DNA of 58,418 nucleotides, filler included, from Sphacelaria rigidula (taxonomy: Eukaryota), in the NCBI GenBank assembly GCA_964200075.2. It is 8 parts of 8 records of this genome, joined end to end, with 100 filler letters (N's around TTAATTAATTAA, not from the genome) between each part and the next. Parts side by side here need not be neighbours in the genome. Positions count along the whole stretch, not along the records: positions 51,205 to 58,418 come from CAXNAA020015934.1; 7 more parts are not named here. One strand, 5' to 3'. A program made the translations under genes and the position numbers. Each line of letters starts with the position of its first letter. The stretch's first letter is position 1. A model generated the notes under the pieces. It made no database searches, was not told the origin of the DNA, and saw only the letters and a list, made by a program, of their open reading frames with translations. Below are positions 5,950 through 58,418 of the stretch, one piece after another.

Positions 5950-7063
5950 CTAGACGGGGGCAAGCACAGGAAAGGGTTCGTTGTTTGTTACGCTGGTTGG
6001 CTGCAACCCAGGAACCACTTGACTGGAGTTTAATTGCTTGGGGTCAGAGGTTTTGCAACTATATTGCAATCGCGTAACCGTCGTTATTCGGCACGTGTGT
6101 CGGTTCACGCGGGGTTGCCTTGCCCAGTCACCACAAGGACGATTAACCACCGGTCGTGAAAAGTGAAGATGTGCTGCTTGCACAGAATGAACCGATGTTT
6201 TGCACCTTTGCCCCATCTATGTAGCGATCGAAAAAACAAAAACTCGCTCAACATTCCCTGTGATGAATCGCCGTCACTGCTGTTGGAGTGAGAGGTTTTA
6301 TGTTCACCAGACTATTCGTCGCCGAGATCATTTTTCCATCATCGTGCACGAGGAGAAACGATGGAGAATCGCCGCCGTCTGAAAAAGCCTTTCGCGGCGG
6401 TGCGAACATTTCCGCTGCAGTTCAAACCACAACCAGTCGAATGGCGACGACGGGCGTTCATGCAGGTGCTCGACGGATGTTTGTGTTTGATTTGGTGTGA
6501 GGAAATGGAGGAAGTGAATGTGCTGTTTTTCACGGCCGACCTGGATGTTCATTAGTATTACAAAACACGGCTCTGTGGGCAGTGGGTGTACAGCCGTGCA
6601 ACGAAAGAGGTTGTTTCTCGTTCTGCGGTAATAATATTTGTTATACGCAAGGGTATTCAGAAACGAAGGATATAAAGAGACACTATTTCTTACCCCCCCC
6701 CCTCACCTCTAGACTTTTGGGTTGGCGTCGAGTGGCAACGGCGCTGTAAAACAAGCCACGAAAACGTGGACAAATGTACAAACTGTCACCGTACACATAC
6801 CGGGGACCGCCACTTTACAGAGAAAGTCCCGGACTGACGGACACAACATGAAAACATTTAAACAACCCAATGCTTTCCCCCCAGAAACACACAATATGGA
6901 TATTGACATGATATACCGAAGATGGGCTATTTTCCCTAAGATTGTTACTTCCTTTTCCCTAGCCATTCTGTTTTTCCTTCATTTGTAGTATTTTCCTTCT
7001 TCTCTTTCTCTACATGTCTCTCTTTTCCGTTTTTAACTTCCTGATTTTTTTTGCTTTTTCCAC

Positions 7064-7215
7064 CTCCTATAACACAGCCCGGATACAGACATGAGATAGA
7101 GAAGCTGATCCTTCCTTTTCCTTAACCTACCATAACACAGCCCGGACATAGACATGAAATAGAGAAGCTAACCCTCCTTTTTCTTTAACCTACCATAACA
7201 CAGCCCGGACATGGA
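7064..7215. repeat. 63-bp tandem repeat (about 2.4 units, cut by contig end)
   Basis: aacacagcccgga recurs at 7071, 7134 and 7197. Confidence 0.9.
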
Positions 7216-7315: not shown

Positions 7316-7356
7316 GGGCGTACTCATTTGTTGCTTGCCTTAGTCGTTTGACCATT
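7316..7356 (-). mobile_element. 3' terminal fragment of LINE family C
   Basis: Reverse complement of tggtcaaacgactaaggcaagcaacaaatgagtacgccc. Confidence 0.85.
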
Positions 7357-7988
7357 AGGGTAGGGGGGGAGGGGGGGGGGGAGTGTTCGTCAACCATGTG
7401 TTTTTGTAAGTTTCATGCGAAAAATCTTAAACCAGGTCCGAGACCCAATAAGAGTGGGGCGACCACTTTGATAGTTGTGTGGTCAGAATAATCACTTTAT
7501 TCCTTTTCAGATGAACTACAGCTGACGTACTTAGCAGCGAAGCAGTACTTGACCGTGTGGGAAATTACTCGAACGTGACAAAACATCGGCATATGGCGTG
7601 CTTTTTACTCTGCTCCTAGTCTTGGCCGCATGTCTGGCCCCTTTTGGGGTCTGCAGCATAACGTCACGCTTTCTGTGTTGTTGACTGAAAAACTAAGCTG
7701 AATCATGATAAACCAACCAATCGAGTAGAGATGACAACAGCATGCAGTGGATTGTGCTCCGTAGAGAGCGATGGCACGCTGACTGCTTTATATCGTTGTA
7801 TTCAGCCGCTGATGAGAAAAATTCGAATGTATACGTAGTACAGAAAAGCAGCATTCGTAGTGAACAGGGAGGTACAGTTGAGATTATGTGACATGCGTGC
7901 AGGATCAAGACTTACTCGAGCTGTGCCAACCCTGCTCCGGTAGTACCCGGACTGCTGCAGAAGATAGGAGGGGATAATAGTGATTTCC

Positions 7989-12195: not shown

Positions 12196-14530
12196 CATTC
12201 CCGTGGAGGAATATTTTTTTCCCGCCGCACGGGGAGAGACGCGCGGGGGGGAGGGGGGTCATCAGCCGCGCGCCCCATATTCCTCATGTCATGCATGCTG
12301 GGGCATCTTGATTTGAACTCTCCCAGTCCGTTTCACTATTATTATTCTCATTTTAACCCTTATCCTGTAGGAAGGTGTTTTACAAATCAATGTCCCTGGC
12401 ACATTGAATACAGTACGCAGTCGAGTACATCGGGTGAAAAATGAATGGGTAGCAAAAGTAACTGTTCACGGTTAGGACAAATCATCACGACTCAAAATCA
12501 CCAAATTCACGGTTTCTTTGACCTGATTGCCAAAACGAGACAAAAAAGTTGATCGCTGGTCCAAGGGGTATCCACTCAAATTTTGCCCCGTTCCACACGT
12601 CTGGGCTGCGTGTACCTGAGTTGCAACGCTCACATAAAGCCTAGGGATTGATTCGTCACGAGTCGACTCATCATACTAAAACCAAGTAATTTTCAGATGA
12701 ATCATTATTTATTTGTCCGATCCCTGTAACTGTTGGTGAGAGCATCTTCACACAGCGGTGAGTGTACCATGTGTACAGTAATGGTATACAAACGGGCACG
12801 TCCTTCCGCTACTGTACTGCTGAGTTGCGATCGATGCACTTCAATATTGCCGGGCATATGTAATTCTAGTGTAGTGCTACCGACATGCAGTTACGATGAA
12901 AGCATCGGGGAGGACAAAGCTATCCGGTTGTTGACGTGCAGGACGGAAAATGACATGATTACGTGTGTGTGGATCGCCCCGAGGACCAACAGGACTTGCT
13001 CGAGATTCGCAAACTAATGTGAACAATCGTGATCAACCCATAGCCTTCGCCTTCCAGCACGGCCAATGCAGTGCTTTACAGTACAGTGCAGTACAGAAGT
13101 GCAGCAGCACGGATTTGTTGCGACTGTGTGTGGTATTCTTGCTGTGCACATAGTGAGCCCCTTGCACAATTTTCAGGAGTATGCGGAATGGACAAGAAAC
13201 TCTTTCGTCTACGAGTACAGCGATGCTGCTATTTGCCAGCTTTTTCATTTTTTCACTGCATTACTGCTGCGACGCAGTTCAAGCGTTCGTTGTAAGAGTA
13301 AAGTCAGGCGGCCTTCCCTACCGCCACACGGTTAATGTTGCTGTATTTGATGATACTCGCTCCATACCACGTCGAGCACAGAGGCCATCGCGTGCAGTGT
13401 CGTGTCGGCGGGCCCAGGGGACGGCAGACAGCGAGGACGACCAGCGAGTGTTCTGGGATGTCGTCGTCAAGGTCGGTGTTGTGTTGTAGGAACGGTATCC
13501 TGACTGCAGTCAGTACCACCGCCCTCGTATCTTTGTATCTCACCGACATGTCGTATCCGGTCGATCTGCAACGGTTCATTCCCAGACAGTGCAGAGACAA
13601 AATGATCATGTAAGCTGTGCACCACACGTAATCATTTTCATTGCGAATACATTGCATTCTGTGTACGATCAAAACTGCACAGCAGCCAAGAAGCGAGCAA
13701 TGCATTCCACGGCCGGTGACGCTAGCAAAATCTATCTCGCTTCATCCTGTTTCATGAATGAATATATACGCGACGTACCGTTATTTGGGCGCGGCGTGCT
13801 CATCTGTTCCGCATCGCCTGCATGATACAGAGGTGACATAAGCTTACGCTCGTTGACGTAGTGCGAGAAAAATGCAAGGCCTGCCTCAGGGCTTGATGTG
13901 AGCGTAGATGTGCGCATGGATTTCGATTTTGCAGAGACTTGCGTAGCAAGCAAGGGTGGCATGTCTTCTGGTTCCGGCACCACACTGAAATTGTTTCTGT
14001 GCGCCCAAATTTGACCGGGGGCAAGAGATGGGGGAGGCGGGAGGGGCGGGGGGTGCTCAAGTAAAAAGGATGATGTACATATTCACACTTGTGGAAATGA
14101 GGTCGGTTCACGTCATGAAAGTTTGTGACTGGAGACGAAGCTCGGACTTGAGTCGTTTTGGAGACTGGTACGAGTTGACCTCGAGTCAGAGAGGTTGAAC
14201 TGATGTGATGGTTACAAAGCACCAGTGAGGCGGCTGGGTTTGGGGGTTTCCTGGAGACCATGTCTCACTATGATGGAAGGTGCCAGAAAACATGAGCTCG
14301 CCGAACCAGTTGCTCGTGTGCGTTGAGACAATCCTGTAGCTATGAGCCGCTTGCGGGGGTCTCCATACTGCTGTCACAGTGTTTTTTGGACAGAGTGTAA
14401 AATGTTGTCATAGCCAAAAAAATTGGAGAATGAGAGGGGGGGGGGGGGGGGCCCCTTTTTTTGCTTGCCTTGGCCTTTTTCCCGCTTCCCACGCTCCCAT
14501 TTTGTGAAAAAGAACCATTCCTACCCCTAA

Positions 14531-14646: not shown

Positions 14647-14650
14647 TTAA

Positions 14651-15065
14651 GTGAGTACATTCGCAACTTTGCTCTCAAAGCTGTATTACTCGTCGTTTTC
14701 GAGCATCCAAGTATCTTCTTAGCTGCTGCCATCTGTACTGTCTCCAACCTCTTCACCAACTTCACGTTCCCCTCCCCTACTTCTCCTGCACATTCCAGCT
14801 TTGGTACGATCACGTTCACCAGGATGCATCTCTTAATCCTAGTGTCTAGGTTCGGGTCTCTGAAGATCACGTCCAACCAGCCTATCTGTGCCTTACCCTT
14901 TTCCATTAGTTTGTTTATGTGTGCATCCCCAGAACAGTTTTTCGAGATCTCCACGCCAAGGTATGTATAGTATACTGGTCCACGATAGGCAATTCTTTTT
15001 CTCCCCACTTCCATTTGAACTCTACCTGGTTTTTCTTATCTTCGTTACAGACGAGTACCGCGCAT
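14651..15065 (-). mobile_element. LINE family C fragment, RT C-terminal/thumb region
   Basis: YTYLGVEIS...WLDVIFRD...LETVQMAAAKKILG; homologous to 57195-57585. Confidence 0.88.
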
Positions 15066-15340
15066 AGCAAACGGTGGGGGGGGGGGTTAAAGTGGAGCTA
15101 CAAACGCTGTGCATTGTATTGCACTGTGATACTTAGCTTATGACAGTATGCATCAGTAAACATCAGCACGATACTGTATCCGTAAGAGATTATGGCGGTG
15201 AGGGAGCGAAGGTGTGGGCAAATACGATGCGGTGCGTTACTCTGGTCGGGTGAGAGGGAGCGGTCTCACTCAGCCGAAGATAGTGAGCACAAAAGATCAG
15301 CTAATATCAGTAGATAGTACACCGCCTGAACTAAGCTCAC

Positions 15341-21320: not shown

Positions 21321-21377
21321 TTTTCTTTTGCTTTTGGGTATGATGTCACCATTGTGCGTACGTAGGTCCCTCCCCCC

Positions 21378-21845
21378 TGATGGAAATAAGGGGAAAAGGA
21401 ACGCTCAGACGCAAAAGTAGACGAGGAAGAACACCTGGAGTACGCAGCGAAAAATATGAAACTGCCATTTTGGGTGGGAGACGTAGACCTGCCAGAAAGG
21501 AGAAAAATATATACCAGTCGTCGAAAGGATAGGGAAGTAGATGGACAGGACTGCCTGTGTGGCGAGAAAATCGAGAGCAGAAGTCATATAGTGGCAGAAT
21601 GTGAACTATACAAGAAGGAACGGGACGTGCTAGAGGGGGAAGTGCGGGACGTGAACGAAAGTGGGATGGAATCGTTTGATGGCTATACTAGGAGATAGAT
21701 GGTGGCCAAAAACGGCGAAACAGGACGGGGATGAGACACGCAATTATTATTGTGCAATGTATGGAAGGAAAGTAATGAGCGCCGGAATGTTGGAGGTGTC
21801 TCTATTAGGAGTAGGAACGGTGCTCCGTCTCGAAAGGGATGCGTG
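21378..21845 (+). mobile_element. LINE family C 3' fragment with Zn-knuckle (CLCGEKIESRSHIVAEC)
   Basis: CCHC-type motif typical of non-LTR ORF2 C-termini; colinear with 57820-58380. Confidence 0.88.
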
Positions 21846-21945: not shown

Positions 21946-21949
21946 CTAC

Positions 21950-22013
21950 CCCGTCTCGAAAGGGATGCGTGGTCAATGGTCAAACGACTAAGGCAAGCAA
22001 CAAATGAGTACGC
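21950..22013 (+). mobile_element. LINE family C 3' terminus
   Basis: ccgtctcgaaagggatgcgtggtcaatggtcaaacgactaaggcaagcaacaaatgagtacgccc. Confidence 0.88.
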
Positions 22014-22084
22014 CCCCCTCCCTACCCCATACGCTGGAGGTAAGTAGTGCTGTGACTACGGGAGGAACCGCCCTTCCCCCCTCT

Positions 22085-22467
22085 TGAGGGCTGGCATCAC
22101 TTGCACACGGTGCTGTAGAACACGCCACTCACTGCGTAATCTAGGCAACCAGGTAACCGGGGTTTTCTGGCGGTCAAGATGATGGTGTTCGGGCTAGACC
22201 ATTTTGTGCGGGGCGGAGGACCCGAACTCCGCTCAAAGGGGATGATCGCACTACGTGGTATTTATATGATGGGCCATCCATGAGGCAGTGTAAAAGCCGT
22301 GCCTGTCTTTGCAAGTGGCGGCTCGCTGAACCCATCACGGTGCTTCGCTCTATGTGATTGATCGCGAGCCTGATCCGGCGAAAACCCGGCGTGCTCCGTC
22401 CCGGCTTTGTAGGGATCCGAGGTTAATGGTCTTATGGCTACGGCATGAAAGATCATGAGTACACCCC
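22085..22467 (+). mobile_element. Retroposon family G; 3' end related to LINE family C
   Basis: Homologous to 36665-37215, 35505-35835 (reverse) and 43735-43790; ends aatggtcttatggctacggc...atgagtacaccc. Confidence 0.7.
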
Positions 22468-29070: not shown

Positions 29071-29160
29071 GGGGGGGGGGGGGGGGGGGGGGGCGCTTGT
29101 TCCTTGCCTTAGGGGTTGGACCTTGGAGCCCGAACCCCTCCGCGGAAGAGCGAGAGAGGG

Positions 29161-31726: not shown

Positions 31727-32540
31727 GGGCCTGTCTTATTAATAGCACTTTTTCTTCGATCGAAAAAGTGCGGTCGATTTGTTTTTCGCCGATCTGATAC
31801 GTCCACCGCATTCACGTTCCTTGAAGGCTTCAACTCAAAATCATCATTAGCGGCGCGCGGAGAAGAATGCAACGAGGTAGAAAACAATCGTTTTCAATCG
31901 AAAACATGCGGTCGAGAGGCACGAAGCGGCACTTGACTCCTATCTTATAGACCACCAAGCCAAATAACACCTGCTCACAGGACCATGCGAACTGCATCCA
32001 ACTCACTCTTAGCTACCACGGCGACCCTGCAGCATAGAGCACGAGTTGTGCACAGGGATAGATACACTGCAGCAGTCGGGTGTGCTTTGTTTATTTTTTG
32101 TTGGCGAAAACTTGCACATCCTCTCTCATGGTAGTGATCAGCGACGGAACTGCGTGGTACGGTGGGCAACCGAGTTGCGTGCACTCTCATGGACAATGCA
32201 GGCAGTACAAAGCTGCACGTTGCTGAAGTCCTTTTCACATCGCATTGTAAGCAGAGAGAAATTATGGTCCTAGGCTGCCTGCACTGCGCGTTGCCCGCTT
32301 GTCTTTTCTATCTTCCTGCACTCAACACACACACGCACTCCACACACCCTGCTTGCAAGCAGTGCAGACAGTACACACTGTACTGTACACGAGTGATCAT
32401 GTGCCGTTTCACGCTTTTCCCTGTATTTTTTTAATCGAAAGCTTGAAAATCCATCTGCACCCAACTGCATCAAAACGGAACATTTCCGCTCAGATCGATT
32501 CCACCGCCGCATTTTTTCGATCAAAACGAAAAGTGCGAAG
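31727..32540. mobile_element. PIF/Harbinger-type MITE (family E), right TIR truncated
   Basis: TTA then GGGCCTGTCTT...; inverted homologue of 39423-40243 over ~800 bp. Confidence 0.85.
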
Positions 32541-32845
32541 GCGTGTCTTGGCACTTTTTTTTCTCGATCGAAAAAGTGCGATCGCAAAAAAAATTGTCCT
32601 ATCTGATAGGTCCACCGCATTTATGTTCCTCCAAGGCTTCAACTCAAAATTATAATTAACGGCGCGCGGAGAAGAATGCAACGAATGGAACAAGATTTTT
32701 TTTCGATCGAAAACATGCAGTCGAAAGGCACGAAACGTAACTTATGTGGTCGGGTAATGACCACGTCGCCATTGTCCAATTGAGCACACATGCATGCGGA
32801 CCCCAACGAATTCATCCACAGCTACCACGGCAACCCTGCAGCGAA
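32540..32845 (+). mobile_element. Left terminus of a longer family-E Harbinger element
   Basis: ggcgtgtcttggcacttttt TIR plus ~300 bp subterminal homology to 31727-32040, running directly into the ORF at 32913. Confidence 0.7.
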
Positions 32846-32912: not shown

Positions 32913-34204
32913 ATGTCAAGCGATGCCCCCGCCTCTGGAGCACGGCCGGCTGGCGTGACAGCGGCGGCTGCTGGGAGCACCCCTCTTCCTCCAGGGGCAG
33001 CAGCGCGCCCGTGCCATACCGCAGGGGGGTTGTCAAGTCTCCACGGCGAACCCGCCGTGATTTCTCCGCAATATCCCTTGGCGGCAACGGATCCTGGCCA
33101 GCACGGACAAGCGCCGGGCGTTGCGCAGGGCGGCAACGCCGGGTGGCAACGACCGCAGATGCTCCCGTTGCTGCAATACAACTCCGGGCGGACTGTGTAC
33201 AGCTCAGGCGTGGTCGGGCCGCCTGCTGCATACAACGCACTGCCGGGCACGGCAGCATACCATCATGCACAGCTCGCGTCACCACCCGCAGTGATGGCAG
33301 GGGTTGGATCGGGGTTCGGTACGCCACCAGCAGCGCAGGCGCCGGCGGGTTTATCTCTGGTCAGGAACGCAGCAGCTGCGACCCCCGCCCCCACGCCCGC
33401 ACCAGATGTGTCCCCCCCGGTTGCTACCGCTCTATTTACAAGCCCCGTGGGCGCGGCAGCAGCGCAAACTTCATCACCTGTCAGTACAGGTGGAGGTGCA
33501 GGCGCAGGCCCTGCGGCGGCCGCAGGCGACGGACGTGGCAGCGACGACAAAACGGAGGAAATAGTAGAAACACCGCCGAAGAGGCGGCGAGGGAGTAGAC
33601 CCATCTACCATGACTGGTCTAACCCAGACGTGAGAGCCGAAATCCGCAGGCGCTCAGGAAAAACGTCAGGGTTAGTAAAGTTCGGTTCCGGGGAGGACGA
33701 TGTCACCAAGACCCTGTCCACGGCGAGGCGCGAAGAGTTGCTGAACATTCTGGAGAAGATGGACAAGTGGGACGTCGATGAAGGGAGGGGACCCGCGTGG
33801 GCGGATGCGCCGGCGTACACACCGCCGGCAAAGCGGGAGAAACGGAAGCGCGAGGGGCAGGACACTGAGGTCGACAGCAAGAAAGCCGGTAAAGAAAGGG
33901 CCAACGACGCCACGCCAGCCGACAGCGCCAGGCTTATCGCTGTCTGTTTCTCGGAGGAGTTCTATGAAGACGTTTGTCGAAGTCGCCAGACGTCGAAGGA
34001 CAGAAATGATCACGATCTGAAGCGCGTGGGAAACAAGAGTTCACCGTGGGTCCGGATCGCGCGCGCGTTCGTGGGTAAAGATTTCAAGATGGACGACGGG
34101 GGGACGCCGTCAAATTCTGTGTCCCACGCCGCTTCCACAGCGCCAGGGGTCCCGGAGATGTGGGAGAGGCTGCAAGCTCTGGACTACATAGCTCCGGCCA
34201 TACG
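32913..34204 (+). CDS. Large exon encoding an Ala/Pro/Gly-rich N-terminus, basic NLS-like motifs and a Myb/SANT-like helical region; probable Harbinger ORF1
   Basis: 431 open codons; PPKRRR and KREKRKR; D.ARLIAV.F.EEF...R.D.D...G...PW..IA.AF; gtgagt donor at 34205. Confidence 0.7.
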
Positions 34205-35504
34205 GTGAGTGTGTCCGCGACAAGTTTTTTTTTTCCAGCCCTCGGCCGTGCATGCGCGATCCTCGTCGCTCTTTGCCTCATTATAAATTTTGGTATTAAG
34301 GTGGCAACCGGGCGTGCAGTAATAGCACGCCGTCGTATACGTCGGCGGCCAACCTTTTATTTGCGGGACGGGGGGGGGTTGTGCTGACGTGTGTGCTAAC
34401 CGCGGGGGTATTTGTCAACATTCAAAATTGTGGCCTGTTGTTGCCACCATGCTAGTGTGCGCATGTGGTTCGCTGCTGCTCCCGGGCGCTTACATAACTT
34501 TTCCGTAGTTCTTGGCTGGAAAAATTCTCTGAACAAACTCATGTTAGACGACTTTTCCCAGACACTTTTTGCGGAGGAAGGGGTGTCAAAACCCCACCGT
34601 TATAGTATATAAGCAGACGGGGAATTCGCACGTGTACACCCGAGTGCGTCATCTGCCCAGCGTGCAGACGGTGGTCGTGGTCGTAATTTGCATTTTGTGC
34701 TTGTGCCACCTGCGGCAAACCAACAAAAATCCAACACGTGAAAAATCCCGTCGAGGTGCAGGATAGATGGGATGGCAACACACACATACACACACACGCG
34801 CGCGCGCGCGGGACCCACTGCAATATTAGGGTTCGAACTGATCGGCGTATCAGCCCTTATTTGATCCGATCGCCGCTTCGTACGGTAGTCCTGTCGCAAG
34901 CCGTGCAATGAGTGCATTACGATACCGCACGCAATAAATTCACTTGTCAGTCAGTAGTGTGGTAAAAACCGTATCAGTATACATAATCCTACAGAGGCCG
35001 CAATCGGTGGCGGGAACGACGGGCACGAAACAGTACGAGCAGTCAACACAGCCAGGAGGGGCGACATCGTGCTATTTTGCGGTTCTAATACTGCCGGCAA
35101 AAATGCACTGTATTGTCTGTACTATATGCCCCTGGCCTTACAGTCATGAAGACCATGCCCGGAGTGTTGCGGAAGCTATCCTGTTGACACGGGACTGTAC
35201 GTGCAACATGGACAGCTCCTTTTGCACTGACTGTGCGATTGCGGGTGCGGTGTGCGAATAATGTGTGATGGAACGACGATTCCCAGGCAGAAAAAGTCTC
35301 CGAGTATCGATATCTTCGCGCAGAGAGGTTTGGGAAAATCCCGCTGCCTGCAATTTTTTGCCAAATTCCCTTGAATTTCCACAGGCGTTTTCCATGAAAA
35401 ATGCCTCTTACGCAATCTGAAGACAAAATTCCGGGAAGCGACCAAAACGAGTTTTCTATGCAACTGTTTACGGTCTAGAATCCCGGATATTACAGCACCC
35501 GAAT

Positions 35505-36664: not shown

Positions 36665-37215
36665 CGGCGAAAACCTGTCGTGCTCCGTCCCGGCTTTGCA
36701 GGGGAGGAGCCCCTATAGAGTTGGCGTCGGTTGGCGATGACGCTGGAAAACACGCCACTCAATGCGTAAGCTAGGCAACCAGGTCACCGATTTTTTTTGC
36801 GTGCTTGCGTTTTTTCGGGGTAACCGTAATGGTAGTCGAGCTCGATCATGTTGTGCGGGGTGGGAGAGCCTCATCTTCGCGCACAGGAGATGATCGTACT
36901 ACGTTGAAATTCATTGGTAAGACACCCAGGAGGCAGTGTATAAGCTGTGACTGTCTCTGGAGGTGGCGATACCAGAAAATGAAGCAACTCTTTGGAGGCT
37001 GTCATCCGAATGCAAGATGATCAGTGCGCTTCGGGCCGAGCATGCTTAGTAGGATGCAGCTCACCCTTCATGGTTCGCCGAGCACATCACGGCGCTTCGC
37101 GCTTGGTGAATGATTGCGAGCGTGGTCCGACGGAAACCCGGCGTGCTACGTCCCGGCTTTGTGCTTATGCGAGGTCAATGGTCTTATGACTATGGCGTGC
37201 AATATCATGAGCTCA
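36665..37215 (+). mobile_element. Retroposon family G copy, flanked by poly-C
   Basis: Homologous to 22085-22467; ends aatggtcttatgactatggcgtgcaatatcatgagctcacccc. Confidence 0.7.
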
Positions 37216-37920
37216 CCCCCCCCGCCCCCCCCCCCCCCCCCCCCCCCCCCCCCGCTGGTGACAGAATTTATGANNNNNNNNNNCGTGCTACGCCCCGGCT
37301 TTGGGCTTATGAGGGGTCAATGGTCTGAGAACTATGGCGGGCAAAATCATTAGACCCCCCCCCCCCCCCCCCCCTTCACGTCTACACCGTTGTGAGATAT
37401 AGATACTGTAATGACATTTTTCTCCAAAAATAGAAAGAAATATAAGAGACAAGGGGAATAATCAGAATTAACAAAAAGTAGCCGGCCCCTGCAGCATGAC
37501 TTCAGGTGAACTACAGAAGACCGTGCGAGAAACACAGAAAAAGAAAAAGAAAAAATGCGGAAGAATCTGTGTGAGAGCTACACCGTCCACATTGGGTTTC
37601 CTCCCTCCGTCAAGGAAAACAAAAAAACGCTGGATAATGGCAATATATCATAACTCCGTATGTTTTCAAAAAGGGTACTGTACTGTGTACAATATCGACT
37701 ATTGCGTCTGTTGCGATAGGCAAAATATATATTCCATACTGTACGTAGTACACGTTTCGACAAGGTATTCTAGTCAATGCCCAGCGTGTGCATTGTCTTG
37801 TCGAGTTTGAGGTCTTCGGGCCATGGCTCGTGAGGAAGCCGGACACGACACCCCATGATGGATCAATCAGTGATATATTGTATTTTATTGCATTGTATTG
37901 TATCGATATTATTGTAGCCG

Positions 37921-38236
37921 CCGCGCCCCCGGTGGTGTAAATTAGAATTGTCCGACTGTCAGCACTCGGGTGGAGAGAACGTGGGTTCGATTCCCGATAC
38001 GTTGGGTTTTGCTTTATTTGCCTACCTGGTTTTCACCGTCGAAAGGGTGAGTACGTGAGTTAACAAGAAGCAGTCGACTGAGTTTGTTTGACGGGAGTTG
38101 ACGCGGTGCGGGAGTGTTGGTCATGATCCAATCCTCGATATCGAAGTGCAAGGCGTGTGCCGGGGGAGAGATGGGTTCATACCCTGAGAACACGGACTCG
38201 TCTCGAGGAAGGGGAGGGGTGTTATTCAAAATGCAA
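37921..38236 (+). mobile_element. tRNA-derived SINE (family A), copy 3
   Basis: ggtggtgtaa (A box) and ggttcgattccc (B box), followed by the family body. Confidence 0.8.
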
Positions 38237-38490
38237 CAAAATTGAAAATTACAGAGATGTGGTACACAGGATATGAGTCATAACGAGCTGCTTCAAGTCT
38301 TGGCGCCTGTTGTGTTATCCCTGTGCTCATGCACGCCGTGCGCAGACAATGAAACCGCAGCAAAAAGTTGAACTCAACCCAGGGACGATGTTTTAATGTT
38401 TTAACCAAAATTCCATGTCATCTTACCTTGGGGCAGATGTATTTTGTGCACCCGGCTGAGCTCGCGCGGTAAGTTGCGGGGTACTTCATG

Positions 38491-39354: not shown

Positions 39355-40408
39355 TTTTCTTTTCTTCTTTTCTTTTCTCTTTTTTTCTTTATATTAGTTT
39401 GTTTTCTTTTTTTCATGTCTTAGGGCCTGTCTTAGCACTTTTCTTTTCTATCGAAAAAATGAGGGTGGAATCGATCTGAGCGAAAACTTTTCCTTTTGAT
39501 GCAGTTGGGTGGGGATGCGTTTTCAAGCTTTCGATCGAAAAAAGACAAAAAAAATCGTGAAACGGCACATGATTACTCGTGTATAGTACAGGCAGTCTGG
39601 ACCGTCTGGATTGCTTGCAAGCAGGGTGTGTTGAGTGCGCATGTGCGTGTTTCGTGCAGGAGGATAGAAAGGAGAAACGGGCAACGTGCAGTGCAGATAG
39701 CGCAGGACTTTCAGTTCTCTCTGCTTACAATGCGACGTGAAAGGAACTTCAGCAACGTGCAGCTTTGTAATGCCTGCACTGCCCATGAGCGTGCACGCAA
39801 CTCGGTTTCCCACCGTACCACGCAGTTCCGTCGCTGATCCCTACCATGAGAGAAGATGTGCAACTTTTCGCCGACAAAAAATCAACAAAGCACACTCGAC
39901 TACTGCAGTGTATCTATCCCTGTGCTCAACTCGTGCTCTATGCTGCAGGATTGCGGTGGCAGCTGAGAATGAGTTGGATGGAGTTTGCATGGTCCTGTTC
40001 ACAGGTGTTATCTGGCGTGGTGGTCTGTATGATAGGAGTCAAGTGCCGCTTCGTGCCTTTCGGCCGTATGTTTTCGATCGAAAACGATTGTTTTTTACCT
40101 CGTTGCATTGTTCTCCGCGCGCCGTTAGTTATAATTTTGGGTTGAAGCCTTCAAGGAACATAAAATGCGGTGGACGTATGAGATCGGCCAAAAAAAAATC
40201 TATCGCACTTTTTCGATCGAAAAAAAAGTGCCAAGACAAGCCCTTAGTCTACTGTGTTGTTCTGTTCAACTTTCTCTGTTTCTTCTTTTTCTTCAGAGAG
40301 TGTTGAAGTTTTTTTTGTCTAGGAGGGTACGTCTATCACGTTAATAATGACCACGACTGGATCCGTGGGGGGTCAGTGAAAGTGCGACGATCAGTCAATC
40401 AATCAAAT
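39355..40408 (+). mobile_element. Family B retroposon 3' end interrupted by a Harbinger MITE
   Basis: Flanks rejoin as catgtcTTAgtctact, matching the uninterrupted copy (cgtcttggtctact, reverse of ~43442-43455); AATC-type tail at ~40390-40406. Confidence 0.7.
39423..40243. mobile_element. Complete PIF/Harbinger-type (Tourist-like) MITE, 821 bp, TTA target-site duplication
   Basis: TTA|GGGCCTGTCTTAGCACTTTT ... AAAAGTGCCAAGACAAGCCC|TTA. Confidence 0.9.
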
Positions 40409-41068
40409 AATGTATCGCTTGGGCTTGACAGTTGTTTTTTTTCAATCTTTTGCGTGTTGGTAGTATAGTGGCTTCTTTTTCCTTTGCAAAATCATACTAC
40501 TCAGGGGCACACGTCGAAAAGTGGAGATGAAGTTTGTGCCGTAGGGTGGTCGAAAATGAAAAAATAAAGCAGCGGCTTACGTGGGGTAATTGGCACCAGT
40601 ATATAAAATAAAAAATAAAACGAGCACATACATGTACATCCATTACACGTTGTTAGAGTACCCTGGGGCACACATAAATGTGGAAGAAATGTACTATGAA
40701 GATATTTCTCGTGCATCCCTCTAATGCTCCCTTTTTTTGTTTTGGGAAAATCTACTAGAGTCAGTTTGCGTTTCACAATATTTTGCGCGTGCACATGTTA
40801 CACTGTGTAGTAGTAGCTTCTCGCACAAGTTTTACCTTGACTTCGCCATTCCCCTCCTTCTCCCACGAGTCTTGTCAGTGCATCACGACCCTGCTTCATT
40901 TCACCACTCTCGTACCTACCCAGCTATACCTTTGTACCCCTTATCCCGTAACGGACAAGGAAGAATGTCGTGTCGTCAATAGCTCGAGTGTGTTGGGTGT
41001 TGGTGAGGCTGAGGTCAGGTGTTCGGGTACTGTGCTCATTAGGGCTCGGAAATAGTACCAGTTATAAC

Positions 41069-43890: not shown

Positions 43891-44099
43891 AAAAAAACCG
43901 ACCGCGAAACCCAAACCCCGCGGGGCGCGGGCCCGGACGCGCGGGCCCCCTCCCCCCCCCCCCCCCCCCCCCCCCCCTCCCCTCCCCTCGATCTCACACA
44001 CATTGCATACATAAGAGATTTTTTCGTGTGACGTGAAAGGCGGGAAGGAGGAAAGCCACTGGCTGCAGTAGGGGTGCGGCACCGGCAGCACCAGCAGCA

Positions 44100-45440
44100 A
44101 TGGGGAATCTCTGTACGGGGCCAAGCTCCACGGAGCGGCAACGAAAGCGAGAAGCGCGAAGAGGTGGATCCGGTTCCACAACCGGGTTCTCTCCCACGGA
44201 GGATCCGCACACTGTTCAAGATGGAACCGGTCCAGATGTTTTGCCAGGCGACGGAGCCACGCGGACATTCGGGCTTTCTTCCTCCTCGGCACAAAATCAA
44301 CAACAGCGCAGCCGAGAGAACTCATACGGGGGTATCACACCGAACGGGGTCTCGGGGGGTCGTGGTTCGCCAGCCGCCCCAGATGATGTGGACCTTCAGG
44401 AAAAACTGTATTCAGAACGAGAGCGGGAAAGACAGCAGCAGTTGCAGGAAGAGCAAGAGCAACAGCGGCAACAAACACGTCTGGATCACAGCCGACGCAG
44501 CGACCGGAGCAACACGCGCTCAGGGGAAGATGAATATGATGGGGATCACCAGCAGCTGCACAGCTCTTCCGACCCGCCTCTCAATCGCTCCCACCGCCGG
44601 GAGTCAAGTCGCGACCGAGCCTCGGCGGGAGCGGGGGCACAACACGAGGGTAGTCGAGGAGATGGGGGAGTGCCATCGGGGGATGAGCAGCGCAGCGAAA
44701 GGGGAGCGGAGCACCGGGAGCGGCGGCACCGTAGCGAACGGCGGGACGGAGAAAGCGGGCGCCGAAAGTCGAAGCGTTCGTCGGGGTCCGGAGGCGATAA
44801 GGCGGACGGCAGCAGCAGCAAGAGCAGCAAGAAGGAGGGGGAAGCCGGAGAGCAGCGATCGAACTCCACGCGCAGCAGCCGGAAGGGATCTTCTCGCCGC
44901 AGCAGCGGCGACCAGAGCGGCCGCCGGCCGCGCAGCGAGCGGTCGGAGGAGGAGATTGCGAAACGCAAAGCGAGGCGTGAACGTGACAAGGCCGCCCGCG
45001 CGAACGGAAAGCCGGAAAGCGAAGAGGGTAAGCGCGAGCGGCAAGAGAGAAAAGAGCGAAGAGAACAGAAGAAGGCAAAGGAGGCGGCGGCAGCTGCCGC
45101 TGCTTCGGGTGGGGCAGCGTTGTCGGAGGCGGCGGGTGGCGGTGGCGGGAGGGGCAGCGGCACGACGGCTTCAGAACCCGCCGCGTCGTTCCAGGGCAGC
45201 TCGGAGAGTAAGCGCGAGCACAAAAAGAGTCGCCGAAAGGCGGAGGCGGCTGCTGCTGCCGCGTCTGCGGCGGGTGGAGTGGGGAGTGCTGAGGGGGATG
45301 GGCAACTTCAGAAAGTGAACGATGAGGAGAGGCTGGGGTTGGCTGGGAGCGGCGGTGCAGGGGCTGGAGAGGGTGTGGCGGTTGATGCCGCGCAAGCGAA
45401 CGGACATAACAAGAAAAAGGGGTCATCTTCATTCAGAAAG
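44100..45440 (+). CDS. First exon (447 codons) of a predicted N-myristoylated/palmitoylated R/S/E/K-rich low-complexity protein
   Basis: MGNLCTG start, long open frame, aag|gtgagt donor at 45441; function unknown. Confidence 0.82.
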
Positions 45441-45886
45441 GTGAGTGTGTGTGACGCGTGTGTTGTGTGTTGTCCGTATTTGGTTGCTGTCTGTGTCTTG
45501 TTTCCGTTTCGAGCGAAAGATGAGAAGGAGCAAGCAGGAGAGACCAGAGAGGAAGGGACGATGTTGCGGTTGCTGTTTTGAACGAAGCATGTTTGTTGGA
45601 AATAAATGCATGATACGGGGTCTGTACAGTAGCTTCACGATCAAGATCCAATGCAATCACTGCAACGTGCTCTTTGCAGGCTGTGAAGCGCAGCTTGATG
45701 GGCGTGGCACAAGAGATGGCCCGTCGTCTATTATATGGTCTGTGGTGCATGTCTGTGTTTCGACGCGTGCGATATGTATGGGGTCTGCCGAGGTTGCGAA
45801 ACGCGGAGTATTTTTGGTTTATTCCGGCGCTGGAGACATGGTCGCGATAGTCAAAATACCGTTTACCAGTCTTGCGTTGTACTTGA

Positions 45887-47220: not shown

Positions 47221-47225
47221 GCGAG

Positions 47226-47416
47226 GGCGTACTCATTTGTTGCTTGCCTTAGTCGCTCGATCATTGACTATGCATCCCTTTCGAGACGGAGCACCGCGGG
47301 GGGGGGGCAGGGGGTGGGGCGTTCTCATTTGTTGCTTGCCTTAGTCGTTTGGCCATTGCCCACGCATCCCTTTTGAGATGGAGCACCGTTCCTACTTCTA
47401 ATAGAGACACCTCCAG
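47226..47416 (-). mobile_element. Two short tandem 3' fragments of LINE family C separated by a G run
   Basis: ctcatttgttgcttgccttagtcg occurs at ~47232 and ~47324. Confidence 0.85.
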
Positions 47417-49390
47417 GGGGAGGGGGGGGGGGAGGGCTGGAAGGTAGTGGAGTGTGTCCGCGATGGTGTCGGGCAGACTATGGTCTGTGCTTGGACCCTC
47501 TCCTCTCAAACGTTTCACCGTGTGCATGATCCTCGTAACGCCCCCTCCCCCCTCGTTTCAAGAATGTAGATGTACCCCCACTCTTTTCATTAACCCCTGC
47601 CCCCATTTTTTCTTCTCCCCTCATTCGTGTGTGGTGGGTGTTTCGGGCAAGGAAGATGAAAACACTACTTCTCCCTGAAGACATGCACCCACACAGCGCC
47701 CATAACGGTGCCTTCCTTGCCTGTTACGTTATCATGCGTACGGGCGGTCTGGATGACGAGGATCCAGAGACTGGATGACGAAGATCCAGAGAGCGTTTTT
47801 GCCCCTTGTTTTCTCAACTGTCGCCAAGACCTGTTTGTACGGTAGCTCCCACGGAACTTGAGCCTGGCGCATGGCATCCAGTTGTGGGATCCGTTGTGCA
47901 TGTTCCGAAGTCAGCGGATGCAGTGTAGATTCACCGCCTTGCAGTTCAACCATTCTGGATCGTCTCGGTCTATTCACAGAGTCAAGGGGCTTGGCTACAG
48001 GGACGGGGAAAGGGGGGGGGGGGGCAGGGATGATATGAACGGAGGGCGTGTCCTTGTGATGTTTGTAGGGTTTCGTAATTCCTGTCCCCTAGACAAGGAC
48101 TACGACAATCATTTCCCACGATCAGCAGCTTGCCTTCTGAGTCTAGTGCCCCTTTCAACGGGCTTACACCACGGAGGATCGTCAACCTGGCTTTGCTCCA
48201 TTCTCCATGGAACATCCACGAACCTACTCTACAACCAGTTGCAGGGCAATGACGCAGTCAGTGCCTGCGGTGGTGAATCTTTCTTGGGAGCGTGGGAGCA
48301 CAGTGTCCTCCGTGTGAAAGTGTATTCGTACTGTACTGCAGCGTTTGTTTTTACCAGCCCTCCGTGCGCGATGCTGTAGCGAACTTTTTCGGAATAATGA
48401 TCATCCTGCGCCGGATGTTAAGGTGCGGCGGGACGCGCACTTCTCCCAAGAATTGCATGCATGTACGAGCTGGACCAGCTTATGGTGTTTCTTATCCGTA
48501 CTCGAGTAACGCGATTGTTAATTCGAAGCGTCAGTGGCTGAAATTGTGACACTCGAAAAAAAGAAAATCTCAGCACGCGCAACAATTCTCGGGATGCCAA
48601 GAAAAAAGAGCAGATAAGCTAGAGCGATTTGGAAATCAGCAAAGGCTGGAAAATGTCATAACTACGTGAGGAGATGAAAACGGCATCCACAAAAGTGTTG
48701 TACGTACTTGCGCGTAGGAGATCCTGGTAAAATTTCCGCCTTGGAAAAAGTCCTGATACTGGGTCGAGCGTGACACTTTTTTTTTTTTTGTGATGCCGCT
48801 GCGCCCCAGTGGTTCAAGTGATGTACGAGTTCCGACACGAGCAGTTTCCCCCCCATAATCTGGCAGATTCCATTTTTCCAACTTGAAGAAAAAATGATCA
48901 CTATCGGGGATGTACTTGATCGAGGGAAAGCAGTGCAGCCCAGTCTCAGTTGGATACTTGTGCCCGTGCCCGTTGTATGTGATGATCGGCTCGAATGTCG
49001 TCTCCCATGGTGAAGCTGCCCACGAGCTTGATGCTATTTCGCAGCTTTCCCAGTGCACTCTCGATTACTGTGCGTAACAAAGTTGTCACACGTAATTCCT
49101 CCGCGTTTCCTACAACGAAATACTTGAGAAACATGCTCTCACGCCGCGGAATGAGACGTGCCCGGTACTCGATGCAGTACGATGACGTCATCTCCATTAC
49201 TGCGCCAATCGACCAGCGGCGGAGCCGTGCGTTACCATGTTGGTCTGCAGTTCACAGCGACATGCTTGAGTCGGGCTGATTTGGGAGACTTGAGAAGTTG
49301 TCAGATGACATGCGTCTGTACGTTTCACGGCTGGCCCAGCTTGTACTTGTTTTTGCCTCACGTATTTTATTTATTATTTATTATTTTTTT

Positions 49391-49669
49391 GTCGCACTTT
49401 GAACCCCTCCCCTTCCTCGGGATGAGTCCGTAATCTTGAGGGATTAACCCATCTCTACCCCGGTACACGCCCTGCATCTTGGTCTGACGAATTGGGTCAG
49501 CACTCCCGCACCGCGTCAACTCACGTCCAATAAAGTCAGTCGACAAGTTTGTCTCCTCACGTTCTCACGCTTCGTACTGTGGAAATCAGACATTCCGAAG
49601 AAAACAATCAACCCATCGGGAATCGAATCCTCGTTCTCTCCACCCTAATGGCGACAGTCGGACTATTAC
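49391..49669 (-). mobile_element. tRNA-derived SINE (family A), copy 4
   Basis: Colinear with 27084-27375. Confidence 0.8.
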
Positions 49670-51036
49670 GTATACGAGATACCTGTTGCGACATGTGTGG
49701 TGACAGTGGTGTGCCAACACGTCCATGTTATGTCAACAAGATGTGAGAAAAAAATCCCACATGCCCAAACCATGTGTGCACCATACGTACGCCGAACACT
49801 CGAAGGGTTGGGTTAGGCCATGGTTTAATCGTCAATCACTCGGCAACTCGTGATCCCCCCGTCGTGGGGATATGAACCACGAACGCTGGGACTGTAACAT
49901 ATTTTGAGTTTTTTTGGGGTTGTGCGTCGGGGGGCTGGTTCTGTGCAGTTGCCCCCCCCCCCCCCCCCCCCTTCACTTAAGGGGTAAGGTACGAGAGCAG
50001 TGAAATGAACCAGGGTCATGATCCAAATCAGGGTCTCGTAGAGGACGAGGTTGGTGAAGTTTCCCCATCCCCCATCCCCCCGCGCGCATCTGGTAGTGTA
50101 TTTTTGTCTGAGGGCTGGCGCTGTACACACGGGGGACGTGACGTAAAATGAAGCTCTTGTGGTGCACGTTTATTTTTCGTGTCTTTTTAATTTTGTAGTA
50201 TTACGACTCTTTGGGGGTCGGTGGGTGAATGTCTGCATTCTCGGACGGAAGAGGTGTTGTCGCTCGGGCGTGCATAGAAAGCACAGTAGCGCACCCTTCG
50301 CTCTTTCGGCAAAAATGGATGGATCGCGAAACGTCGCCCCAATAGTTGACGACGCGCGATTCGTCTTCCGGCAAAGGTGAAGAAGTCTCCACAAGTTGAA
50401 GGAGACGGGCGATGTGCACAATTAATGCACCCTCCGTGGTAGTGCTGCTGTTATCTTCCGCATTTCTATGTACGGACCGAATGTCGATGCCACAACGTGC
50501 GCAATCGATTGAGAGCCCCTAAGCGGCATGGCATTATACTGTTGCATTGTCGACGAGAGGCTGGATTAACTCCTGCGGGTTCGTGTTTCTTGTGCATATT
50601 CGTCTGATCTCGTGACCCAGACCAACATGTAGCCCACGTTCTCCTATCGACCTCGATAATTCGGTAGCCATAGAGACCGCCTAGCTGGCGCACCAACAGC
50701 GCCTGGCACAAACTTCTTGCCGACCCTCTGCTGAAGAACGTGTGAACATCGCCAGTTGGAGTCCAGCCTTCCGGTATACGGAGGTCCCTAGCCGTCATCA
50801 GCAGAAGCCGGAAACGCCTTTTTTGCAACGACCACCCTACATCCCACCGTGAGAGTGTTTCTAGTGAGAGCTACGCTGTTCACAATAGTACATCGTCAGA
50901 ATATGTGTCGTATACCACGCACCCTTTCTCACATACGGCCGCGCTCCGGTGGTGGTCCCAAGTGCTGAAAAGGTTCGATTTGCGGCAGACACAGAAACTC
51001 TACTGTGGAAACAACATCTCTCCCGCCCCCCAACCA

Positions 51037-51099
51037 ATGCTCCGTCTCGAAAGGGATGCGTGGTCAATGGTCAAACGACTAAGGCAAGCAACAAATGAG
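51037..51099 (+). mobile_element. LINE family C 3' fragment
   Basis: Same terminal sequence as other copies. Confidence 0.85.
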
Positions 51100-51104
51100 A
51101 AAGC

Positions 51105-51204: not shown

Positions 51205-51266
51205 GCTCACATTTTGCCACTAGATGACTTCTGCTCTCTATTGCTTTGCCACAGAGGCAATTCTGT
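51205..51266 (-). mobile_element. LINE family C Zn-knuckle fragment (NCLCGKAIESRSHLVAKCE)
   Basis: Matches ~21545-21605. Confidence 0.8.
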
Positions 51267-52479
51267 ACCCGAGTGGGGGGGGGGGTGGAAACCACAAATT
51301 TTACTGCAATGACCCGGCCAACCGTTCCAGACATACATGATGCACAATCCATTTCAAAGTGAAAATGTCACTGAAGCTGAAGTAGATCACACGCTGATCG
51401 CTGATGCTTTTCGGAGCTATAACCGTACTGCAGTCGCGGGCCACAGAAGGCCAGCGAAAACATGCGTGATGGACTGCACATCGAGAAAAATTTTGTGCTG
51501 TATAGTATGCGGTGTATAATTTGACCTGTACCTAGCCACCGCAAGAGTATCTTTGTTTCAACACAGGGCATGAATAGAATGCCATCAAACCCTTGGCAAA
51601 AACACAATATTTCATGGTCTGTGGACCACTTGCATACGTGTTTCGTTCGAATAGATGGGTTGATCCCTTGAGAGTGCGGACATGCTGGCGGGAAAGGGGT
51701 GGGCTGCAAGTGTGTACGAAAAAACAGACTTGATATCGTCAGAGATTTCTCCGGCTGATGTCAGCACAGCGCCATCAAGCACCTAGTTGCCTACGCACAG
51801 TGTCTTGCAATACCATGGTTCTGGGCCTTTTTTTCGGCCGGTCATCGAACCTATTCAACCAGGGTGGTCAGATGACGTTTTCATTGAAATCGCGAAACCC
51901 CCCGCAATGCCATGCCGATGATCTTGAGGCAACAGCAATGGGGCTGGTCCACGCTGAGGGTGGTTAAAACGAAAGCACCGACAGACGCCGCATTTTTTCC
52001 TCGTCCCACGCCACCTTCTTTTGCCCTGACACGCCCTTTGTGCCTCGCTCGTGACAAACTGTCACGCATTTTCTTTGTGCACACAAATGGCCGTACTCGA
52101 TGCGTGCTGCAGTTGTCTCGAAACACATGAGGGTCACGTGTGCAGTGTCCAGCGCAAGAACTCACCATAATCGTCATCACCTACGAAAATGCGCGGGCGT
52201 TCAAGGCGTTGCAAAGAAGACTTGATGGCTGACGAAACACTGAGCCTCTGACAGCTTCGCCAGTTTCTGGAACACGACACAGTATAAGCGGAAGTAGTCA
52301 TGGTACCACTGGTGTGTCCGTCCCCCGTCCCCGTCCCCGCCCCTTATTTTGAAGAGCTAAGAAAACTGCTGTTTGCCTTGCTTCAGCAGTCCTGGTATTT
52401 TTCGAGGCAGCATTGGCGCACCTTGTCCATGTTCTGATGTTACATTTTGTCACGACTTAGTCTACTCTGTCGTTCTGTT

Positions 52480-55950: not shown

Positions 55951-57106
55951 AGATGACGGGGCCTACAATGCTTATGCGATCAGCTGTAGTGGTGTCTGCC
56001 CGGGCCGCCACGCCAGGTCGCGCAACCGCACAAAGCGCCTGGGCCGCGCTCGCCTCTCGCCGAGGCATGACGACCTTCAGTGAAAAGTGAGTGTTTTCCT
56101 GCCTTGTTGTGCTTAGTTTCTGTCCTGTAAGTTTTGCTGGAAGAATACGAAGGTGTCGTTCCATTCCTTATTGCGTGCGAACAAGAGTTGTTTATGAGCG
56201 TGCGTATATGTTTCAAGTGTTCGCGCATTCGCCTTTTTTGCTTCACACGCCACGGGTGATGTGATTACTTTTTTTTACTCCCTGGACGGTAGATCACATG
56301 TCCGAAAAATGTACCGCGTACAGTATCGACCATTGCGTCTATCACGGGAAAAAATATTCCCCACGGTATGTAGTACAGTTTCGTGAAACGTAATGTTTCG
56401 TTCAGGGGGTGTTGGATTTTTAATCTTTCGGTCGTGGAGATGAGGTTCCTTGGTGCATGGGGTTCCGTCCCGTATCCGTGATCCCCCTTTTACGTAGTAT
56501 GCAGGCTACATCAAGGGTTCTCAACATGGTGCGGTGGCCGGGCAGCTTCCCATCTGACGTAGTCCACAATGAGAGGACTGACTCTTGACTCTTGGCGACA
56601 CTCAATCACTGCAAATCTGTTGTCTGCTCCGTCCAGCGTCCACTAAGTTAAAGTCATTGAGTAGGTGATAAGCTACTTTTTGAAAGGCCCGGGTGTGTGT
56701 GTGTGTGTGTTTTTTTTCAAGATCGTCTTTCTGTAGTGTGGGGGCGGCGGCATCTTCTCGTCGTGGTAGCTTCGTTTTTCCAAAAGCGCAGAGGGTTGGA
56801 GACTTGCTGTGAGACGAACAATCGGAGCCAACTTACTAGGGTGTGGCGGATCCCATTGGAAAGCTGATTAAAGCTATGAGACAGTGCTGTGCGACGTGGC
56901 TTGGCGCAAAGAATCACCTCTGACCACAGGCAATGAAATCGAGGAGCACGCCCCGAAGCATGTTGTCCGCTTCCCCCCCCCCTCCCCCCCCCCCTCTCCC
57001 CCCTCAAATATTTTGAAACCTATGAGTAAAACGAGAGCAACTGGGGGCAGCCTGTGTAGTCCTCTATGCGATATGAAGACGACCCTCCCCCCACACCCTT
57101 GGTCTT

Positions 57107-58415
57107 GTGGGGATTTCGTAAACACCAGAAGGATTACAGACAGATGGACGAGGCTCTAGAATACACGAGGAAGTGGAGAGTGACAGCGAATTTCAACAAG
57201 TGCGCGATACTCGTCTGTAACGAAGATATGAAGTGGGCAGAAAAGGAACTGCTGATCGTAGACTAGAATACATACCTTGGCGTAGAGATCTAAGAAACTG
57301 TTCGTGGGATGCACACAAGAATCAAGCAGTAGAAAAGGGTAAGGCACGGATGGCCAAGTTGGACGTGATCCTCAGAGACGCGCAGCTAGACACCAGGAGT
57401 ACGAGATGTATCCTGGTCAGTGTGATGGTATCAAAGCTGGGATATGTAGAAGAAACATGGGAGGGGAACGTGCAGTTGGAGAAGAAATTGGAATCAATAC
57501 AGATGGCAGCAGCTAAGAAGATAATTGGATGCTCGGAAGCGACGGGTAATACAGGTTGAGAGCAGAGTTGGAATGTACTCACTTAAAACGAACAGAAACA
57601 TGGGGAAACTGCAATGGCAATGTAGCTTGAAGCACATGCGGAGGAAGATATTGTCAGCTCTAGTTGATAGAGCTGTATGGAAGGAGTACGAAACGGAAGG
57701 CTGGAATTAGGTGGGATAAAGAGGTCGAGCGAGTATCGAAAGAGATGAGAGGAAACGAAGACAACATGCTGTCTATAGGTGGAGGCGCGGGGGTACAAGA
57801 CACAAAGTCAGAGATATGATGGAAAGAAGAAACGGGGAGTGCTCAAACGCTAAGTAGTCGATGAAGAACACCTGGGGATATGCGGGTGGTTACGAGAGGG
57901 GATAGGGATGAAAGCATATCTGCATGGCCCAACGAACGCGGCGAGAAATCTGAGGCTGCGATTTCGGGTGAGGGACCTGGACCAGTGACAGAAAAGAAGG
58001 AGATGTGCCACAAAGAGATTCACCGGTAGGCGTGTGGAAGAGGAAGTAGATGGACAGAACTGCCTCTGTATAAAAGGAAAAGAGGGAAGTCGTACAATGG
58101 CAAAATGTGAACTTTACGAGGAGGAACGGAACGTGCCGAAGGGGGACATTTGGGACGTGAACGAAGATAGCATGAGATCGTGTTATGCATCAGACAGTAG
58201 GAAGGAAACGATGGCTATACAAGGAGATGGATGGTGGCCACACACGGGCGAACAGGACTGGGGTAAGACATGTAGGCGGTTTTTGTGTAATGTATGAAGA
58301 AGAACCCATGAGCGGCGGGATGTTGGAGGTGTCTCTATTGGGAGTAGGAACGATGTTCCGTCTCGAAAGGGGTGCGTGGTCAATGGCCAAACGACTGAGG
58401 CAAGCAACAAATGAT
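57107..58415 (+). mobile_element. 5'-truncated, decayed LINE family C (RT C-terminal half, thumb, Zn-knuckle, 3' end)
   Basis: KWRVTANFNKCA...TYLGVEI...LESIQMAAAKKIIG...NCLC...GDGWWP, with stops and frameshifts; ends in the family terminus. Confidence 0.9.
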
Positions 58416-58418
58416 TAT

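Follow-up and report, generated by a model that had tools for sequence, protein, structure and literature searches.

Target-primed reverse transcription (TPRT) is the established mechanism of LINE integration. In mammalian L1, the homopolymer tail pairs with a nicked complementary run, and the target-site duplication (TSD), of about 7–20 bp, begins with the base of the tail. The closest described elements are those of Ectocarpus sp. 7, where RTEX-1_Ec32 is annotated with a "single EN-RT ORF; (C)n 3'" and a "C-rich" TSD (PMC12477816, supplement MOESM3), RTEX-2_Ec32 with "(C)n termini/TSD", both at a length of 5.5–5.9 kb, and RTEX-N1_Ec32, a 607-bp sequence sometimes found in tandem, with a 60-bp 3' end in common and weak homology to the LINE 5' end (PMC12477816). 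The main-text passages and readable supplements of that work hold no junction statistics, mechanism or truncation peak that we could find. According to the available passages of PMC8557442 and PMC9977147, Chlamys Penelope-like elements (PLEs) target (C)n repeats, and active Chlamys-9/N4 gives very short 5'-truncated inserts with a median of 128 bp. Passages of PMC6007223 describe RTE-clade LINEs and SINEs with (GTT)n/(CAA)n-type ends and a T stretch one turn upstream, and propose that the RNA 3' repeat sets the first TSD base, either by guiding cleavage or by pairing. Those of PMC3747384 give green-algal RTEX ends as (CA)n, (CAA)n, (CCAT)n and others, while those of PMC4421812 and PMC5753468 mention RTEX without target data.

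Here we analyse a LINE family of Sphacelaria rigidula (GCA_964200075.2; 244 Mb in 27,214 contigs) seen in a window of 58,418 nucleotides, which consists of eight separate contigs of about 7.2 kb (C15927 first, C15934 last) joined by N spacers, neighbouring contigs being unrelated. Like RTEX-1/2_Ec32, the LINE has a single EN-RT ORF with an N-terminal APE domain, a length in the 5.5–5.9 kb range, a (C)n 3' end (52 of 58 copies) and C-rich TSDs (a TSD in 19 of 58), and, as with RTEX-N1_Ec32, it has a partner of the ~600-bp class that shares the 3' ~60 bp. Unlike RTEX-1/2_Ec32, it resides in another genome, and its long copies are 77–86% alike and broken. The likeness is one of annotated features, not of direct sequence identity, and the RTEX label would rest on best-blastp notes in the accessible parts of PMC12477816 and on the Ectocarpus members of the closest protein clusters. 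The initial annotation had proposed that the family inserts into C/G homopolymers and knew of no such described target. The targeting is real and was rightly read as a preference, but its kind is already annotated in Ectocarpus, in the parts of PMC12477816 available, and (C)n targeting is also on record for Chlamys PLEs (available passages of PMC8557442).

Other known systems differ in instructive respects. Chlamys PLEs carry a GIY-YIG endonuclease and a PLE-type RT, whereas the LINE has an APE endonuclease and a LINE-type RT. With mammalian L1 it shares a TSD that starts with the tail base and, as we propose, a homopolymer tail that pairs with a complementary run; unlike L1, it uses C/G rather than A/T, has no visible ORF1, matches the L1 RT distantly, and lacks the poly(A) tail and A-rich TSD start (a run of at least five A in 0 of 58 copies, with C-rich 3' ends). 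The structured 3' end that it has in common with its partner is a sign of stringent RNA recognition, also unlike L1. As described for RTE-clade LINEs and SINEs in the passages of PMC6007223, the first TSD base follows the RNA 3' repeat and the 3' end is common to the LINE and its SINE-like partner; in contrast to that clade, the run lies inside the TSD, and the (C)n end sets the element apart from the green-algal RTEX ends listed in the passages of PMC3747384.

Copies of the family in the window

In the last contig, a 5'-truncated LINE copy of about 1.3 kb (57102..58418, plus strand), which codes for the end of the RT, the thumb and a C-terminal CCHC-like motif (tblastn of P0001, residues 931–1360), stands behind a C-rich target run at 57084..57099 (plus strand), presumably the 5' copy of the TSD; homology begins at 57102–57105. 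This copy has many stops and frameshifts, its stop codon lies at about 58412–58414, and the contig ends 4 nt past the stop, reading TGATTAT. An intact LINE 5' end with its leader (6703..7215, plus strand; blastn to L140 and L151, TRF on the L140 leader) directly follows C10 at 6693..6702 (plus strand) and runs into the 63-bp array (7055–7215), where it is cut by the contig end. Two further plus-strand copies are also cut by contig ends: one at 21368..21845, in which the C-rich run 21368–21377 precedes a truncated copy at 21379–21845, and one at 51022..51104, in which a C-rich run precedes a copy of about 63 nt belonging to the 55–67-nt hotspot class considered below. A copy of about 58 nt with an intact 3' end (21949–22012, within 21946..22030, plus strand) carries CTACCCC on both sides, probably the end of a TSD.

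On the minus strand, a 3' fragment of about 33 nt to the stop lies at 7316..7381 with its target run visible as a G run at 7358–7381 on the plus strand, the contig beginning in its C tail; an RT-region fragment (14649–15065) adjoins a G11 target run at 15076–15086 (14649..15086), and a fragment at 51207–51266 adjoins another G11 at 51275–51285 (51205..51285). Two tandem 3' fragments of about 91 and 64 nt to the stop occupy 47225..47432, with a target run at 47416–47432, and the shorter follows the C tail of the longer. The partner is present as a nearly full copy (36665–37211) between C20 and a tail of C8+C29 (36631..37253, plus strand; 80.5% over 550 nt to the L030 copy) and as an internally deleted copy (22112–22463) after a C-rich run (22112..22467, plus strand).

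All eight runs to which the initial annotation tied the truncations lie where it placed them, on the sense strand of the element, with homology beginning 0–11 bp away (at 21379, 51037–39, 57102–05, 7356, 15065, 47296, 47415 and 51266); one of them, at 47298–47307, is the tail of the neighbouring copy and not an independent target. The exact 3' end ATGAGTACG is found at 22004 (plus), 7319 (minus) and 47228 (minus), each followed by C-rich sequence, as had been claimed. The 5' end at ~6703–7215, the copy at 21949–22012 and the partner copies at 36665–37211 and 22112–22463 are additions to that annotation. That the runs are sequence internal to the element was rejected, and so was the view that the family left most of the C/G runs behind as relics, 11 of 47 runs of at least 7 lying beside a mapped fragment, with two later finds. 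Two other dispersed repeat families, unrelated to the LINE, occur at 31721–32842 and 39431–40409, and at 3431–3729, 27075–27389, 37919–38241 and 49381–49669; long stop-free frames resembling host exons lie on the plus strand at 32913–34208, 44037–45581 and 17305–18096 (431, 514 and 263 aa).

C runs at junctions across the genome

A 21-mer from the 3' end of the element has 3,596 exact matches in the genome (1,800 and 1,796 on the two strands), and a control has 0. The first 30 matches and 40 of the other 70 listed, picked away from contig ends, gave 70 loci with 73 copies, of which 58 were usable, 15 being dropped for short or N-containing flanks; sampling from the longest contigs with an exact 21-mer favours short, young copies. 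A run of at least five C within 25 bp upstream of the 5' junction was found in 40 of the 58 copies, compared with 2.2% of 4,137 background windows taken from the same loci, while runs of at least five of the other bases were found in 2 (G), 0 (A) and 1 (T) of the 58. C frequency reached its maximum, 0.72, 10 bases upstream of the junction. Enrichment grew with run length, from 3.8-fold for C4–5 through 40-fold for C6–8 to 83-fold for runs of at least nine C, a trend that slippage after insertion may have inflated by lengthening the runs. Six of the 58 copies stand behind the tail of another family copy; when these are excluded, 34 of 52 retain at least five C upstream. All eight intact 5' ends found, one of them at window position 6703, are directly preceded by C-rich sequence, short in L061 and L147. 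The claim that every truncation lies at a C-rich run thus holds for the window and not for the genome, where 13 of 58 junctions lack any run of at least four C upstream.

Within 25 nt after the stop codon, at least five C in a row occur in 52 of 58 copies and at least five G in none, and GTACG directly follows the stop codon in 45 of 58.

Target-site duplications and empty sites

When a TSD had to span 10 bp or more and include no fewer than 4 non-C matches, duplications were detected in 19 of 58 copies, as against 34 of 1,500 mismatched pairs. They are 10–22 bp long (median 16, slightly inflated by microhomology), and 18 of the 19 start with C-rich sequence. The run ends a median of 6.5 bp from the junction; the offset of "within about 10 bp" in the initial annotation is the non-C remainder of the TSD. 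Of the 19 TSD copies, 10 have the longer C tract at the 3' side and 6 at the 5' side, with no difference in 3, and the 3' run is partly an element-derived tail, exceeding the target copy in those 10. Several C tails are broken by a single A, T or G. In the remaining 39 of 58 copies no TSD reached this threshold, a lack for which age and all-C TSDs may account in part; in the full-length copies L140 and L151 no non-C portion of a TSD is visible. The same short flank follows the C tail of unrelated copies at L033, L038, L089, L160 and L170, either a host-repeat target or 3' transduction.

The copies at L096 and L116 sit in a host repeat, of which 172 empty copies were found with a search pattern that left the middle unspecified and so did not demand C. 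All 100 of these that were listed hold a C-rich stretch, as judged by eye. Since the empty copies keep the C run, the target existed before insertion, and the initial proposal of insertion into C/G runs is upheld both by TSDs that begin with the run and by empty paralogous sites that carry it. Orthologous sites were compared over a 5.5-kb stretch with three insertions, using contigs from four runs (at most four samples from two studies, X1 possibly being the source); X1 and X4 contigs enter a LINE copy, and no contig skips an insertion among the 15 joints listed, beyond which there are 1,142 more.

Structure and relatives of the LINE

The element is a single-ORF APE-RT LINE of about 5.8 kb, of RTE-X type. 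Natural full-length copies measure 5.3–5.8 kb (L151 about 5.8 kb; L140, which is internally deleted, 5.3 kb) and consist of a leader of about 2 kb, carrying a 63-bp tandem array (12.3 copies in L140 by TRF), followed by an apparent single ORF for an APE endonuclease, an RT (RVT_1) and a C-terminal Cys/His motif. P0001 (1,360 aa) aligns in order along L140 over residues 1–684 and 938–1360. In a Pfam scan of seven fragments, PF03372 (APE) matched the L141 ORF at E 1.8e-8 and RVT_1 was also matched, and the catalytic-type residues E203, Y282, G318, D319 and N321 are invariant. These two observations assign the endonuclease, for which the initial annotation had left a choice between APE and REL, to the APE class; a REL endonuclease of the R2 or CRE type was rejected, the APE domain being N-terminal, and so was a GIY-YIG endonuclease, none appearing in the scan of the seven fragments. 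In L071, at ~2950–4000, another sequence lies nested within the copy's RT, and its first translated residues resemble a different LINE.

Intact relatives are P0001, 62% identical to L151, and P0003, in whose cluster Ectocarpus proteins fall; the Ectocarpus-named proteins P0169 and P0184 are 54% and 42% identical to the broken copy L151. Those homologues of the LINE protein that carry a name are from Ectocarpus, which points to a brown alga as host. Five metagenome loci carry relatives; four of them extend as far as the stop, and all four finish with the same motif and a C run. A PDB search returned only distant L1 and R2 RTs (L1 ORF2p RT at E 7e-21), and a search of a representative protein library gave unnamed matches with no clade label. 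The Ectocarpus gene models P0006, P0007 and P0011 join the RT to Gypsy/NADAR, ABC-transporter or other domains and are probably annotation chimeras.

A truncation peak close to the stop codon

Truncation points fall at differing positions, as first noted, but are unevenly spread: a junction can be seen in all but 9 of the 73 copies, and of these 64, 40 are cut 55–67 nt from the stop, 2 at 42–54 and 0 at 68–80, in a sample from the long contigs of a short-read assembly, which under-represent long copies. For the partner, 0 of 23 junctions fall at 55–67 nt (Fisher p 3e-8 versus the LINE). From −61 through −1, short and long copies agree in their majority base throughout, and at one position the frequencies differ, T standing in 15 of 40 short copies as against 4 of 51 long ones.

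A 6-bp stem capped by GAAA follows just 3' of the peak, and each of its positions is paired in 47–49 of 51 copies. In this first stem the partner has C-G where the LINE has U-G, together with a longer loop, and in a second stem one U-A/A-U swap separates the two; RNAalifold recovered the second hairpin only, the first loop being misaligned. From these alignments a two-hairpin module, common to LINE and partner, is suggested at the edge of the truncation peak. The structure is suggested rather than proven because the compensatory evidence amounts to one or two events, namely one LINE–partner pair plus one-sided changes. Such stem-loops mark stringent LINEs, according to passages of PMC3747384. 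The last ~20 residues of P0001, P0003, P0169 and P0184 are conserved although the proteins are 52–75% identical, and their coding sequence is the RNA module where truncations peak. No comparable junction analysis or structure-defined truncation peak was found in the literature searched, Repbase Reports and subscription papers lying outside its scope.

The non-autonomous partner

The partner is about 550 nt long and has 1,979 exact genome matches. It shares with the LINE its final ~62 nt as well as a portion of the 5' end, and at least five C stand upstream of 19 of 23 usable copies (of 30), at least five G upstream of none. A module of about 45 nt at its 5' start is repeated about 95 nt from the 3' end (L030:1029–1576; window 36665–37211), and several copies start at the inner module (lengths 90–103), which has no Rfam match. 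In Rfam searches, four loci with full-length and partner copies yielded three chance microRNA matches and neither a ribozyme nor a tRNA head. By eye, the partner head could not be fitted to an HDV-like fold.

Proposed mechanism and alternatives

We propose that this RTE-X-type single-ORF APE-RT LINE very probably integrates by TPRT into pre-existing poly(dC):poly(dG) runs. The endonuclease would nick the G-rich strand, in the G run or at its end, and the freed G-ended 3'-OH would pair with the RNA's C-rich 3' end, made up of the stop codon, GTACG and a C run. A second nick about 7 bp past the run would place the truncated 5' end a few bases after the C run. The C tail of the RNA would be copied from the donor's own C-rich flank without a poly(C) polymerase, a templated origin suggested by the frequent interruption of the tails, and the protein would bind the two-hairpin module that lies within the final ~60 nt of the ORF, with synthesis often halting just beyond it. 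A fuller scheme for specificity without a poly(C) polymerase is offered more tentatively, as a possibility: the donor may transcribe its own C-rich TSD as tail, with annealing at a C-rich 5' end giving the all-C TSDs of full-length copies; insertions may duplicate C runs and so create new targets; and the RT may let go just after the bound two-hairpin module. Where both sides are C, the position of the nick and the shares of endonuclease and priming cannot be read from sequence, and both guided cleavage and pairing, the two causes offered for RTE elements in the passages of PMC6007223, fit the data, which by themselves cannot separate them.

The endonuclease might instead be unspecific and the bias arise from priming alone, if only G-ended nicks can pair with a C tail. 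The correlation of 3' repeats with TSD starts in RTE elements, for which the passages of PMC6007223 offer priming as one cause, and three TSDs that begin with only CCC (L055, L086, L087) are in keeping with such selection; the rise in enrichment from 3.8-fold to 83-fold with run length, however, goes beyond the need of a 3–4 bp primer, and the target run reaches beyond the duplicated part in 6 of 19 copies. We regard this account as doubtful in its pure form, and it and the main TPRT model are not mutually exclusive. A different question is whether the 5' C runs were produced during insertion, by untemplated or slipped synthesis. C's were indeed added at the 3' side, where the tail exceeds the target in 10 of 19 copies, but the 5' runs pass without a break into unique TSD sequence that recurs on either side, and the empty paralogous sites, which have the run, contradict an origin at insertion; we consider it highly unlikely.

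Still less credible is that the runs are Illumina poly-G or assembly artefacts, a reading which the initial annotation had itself named as one that would undo its proposal. At two contig ends the sequence is degraded beyond a long G run, and 8 of 11 runs of at least 14 are no more than 100 bp from an end or gap, so that run lengths there are unreliable; yet the runs are interrupted, strand-specific and embedded in TSDs with unique flanks, they recur in independent metagenome assemblies, and they are annotated in a near-gapless Ectocarpus assembly (available parts of PMC12477816). The ~61-nt copies, finally, could be something other than LINE truncations, either a tiny non-autonomous family in its own right or a processed RNA. 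The sharpness of the peak and the excess of T at one position in short copies speak for this, while the agreement of the majority base with long copies from −61 to −1, the want of a head of their own, and junctions scattered over several bases with microhomology or 1–2 extra bases make it unlikely.

Contig breaks

The initial annotation had also linked the family to breaks between contigs, a link that is borne out in part. By our own reading of the mappings, 12 of the 16 contig ends in the window lie in or beside a family copy, and the zone within 100 bp of an end or gap, in which the 8 of 11 C/G runs of at least 14 cluster, makes up 3.4% of the window. At 14436..14530 (minus strand), beyond a G16 tail the LINE 3' end is read through in degraded form up to the contig end (14448–14530; score 89 against 33±5 for shuffles, maximum 47), probably reflecting sequencing dephasing, and at 29071..29160 (minus strand) G23 stands before a LINE 3' end that is likewise degraded and lies at a contig end (29090–29160; score 44 against 23±4.5, maximum 40); a third contig end, 36416–36475, gave no match to the LINE 3' end. 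Among LINE matches, those within 100 bp of a contig start number 8 of 54 on the plus strand, with the break inside the element, and 5 of 46 on the minus strand, with the break on the tail side. Breaks thus also fall inside the repeat itself, and repetition and G runs both contribute. A degraded second copy of 37142–37235 lies at 37284–37374, across a 10-N gap, and is probably one locus assembled twice after a G run.

Implications

The target has been on record only as notes in a table, and the counts given here quantify it. Many of the contig breaks and degraded ends in short-read assemblies of brown algae can be put down to the family and its G runs. As a natural C/G mirror of L1 priming, the LINE makes the question of endonuclease versus tail–target pairing testable. 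The parts most worth following up are the truncation peak, which we have not found in print, and the inherited-tail model. The 61-nt peak points to an RNA element held by the protein and to the origin of parasitic partners; if the scheme of inherited tails and release at the module is true, about 2,000 minimal mobilisable units of ~61 nt would remain in the genome, ready-made 3' ends for new SINE-like partners.
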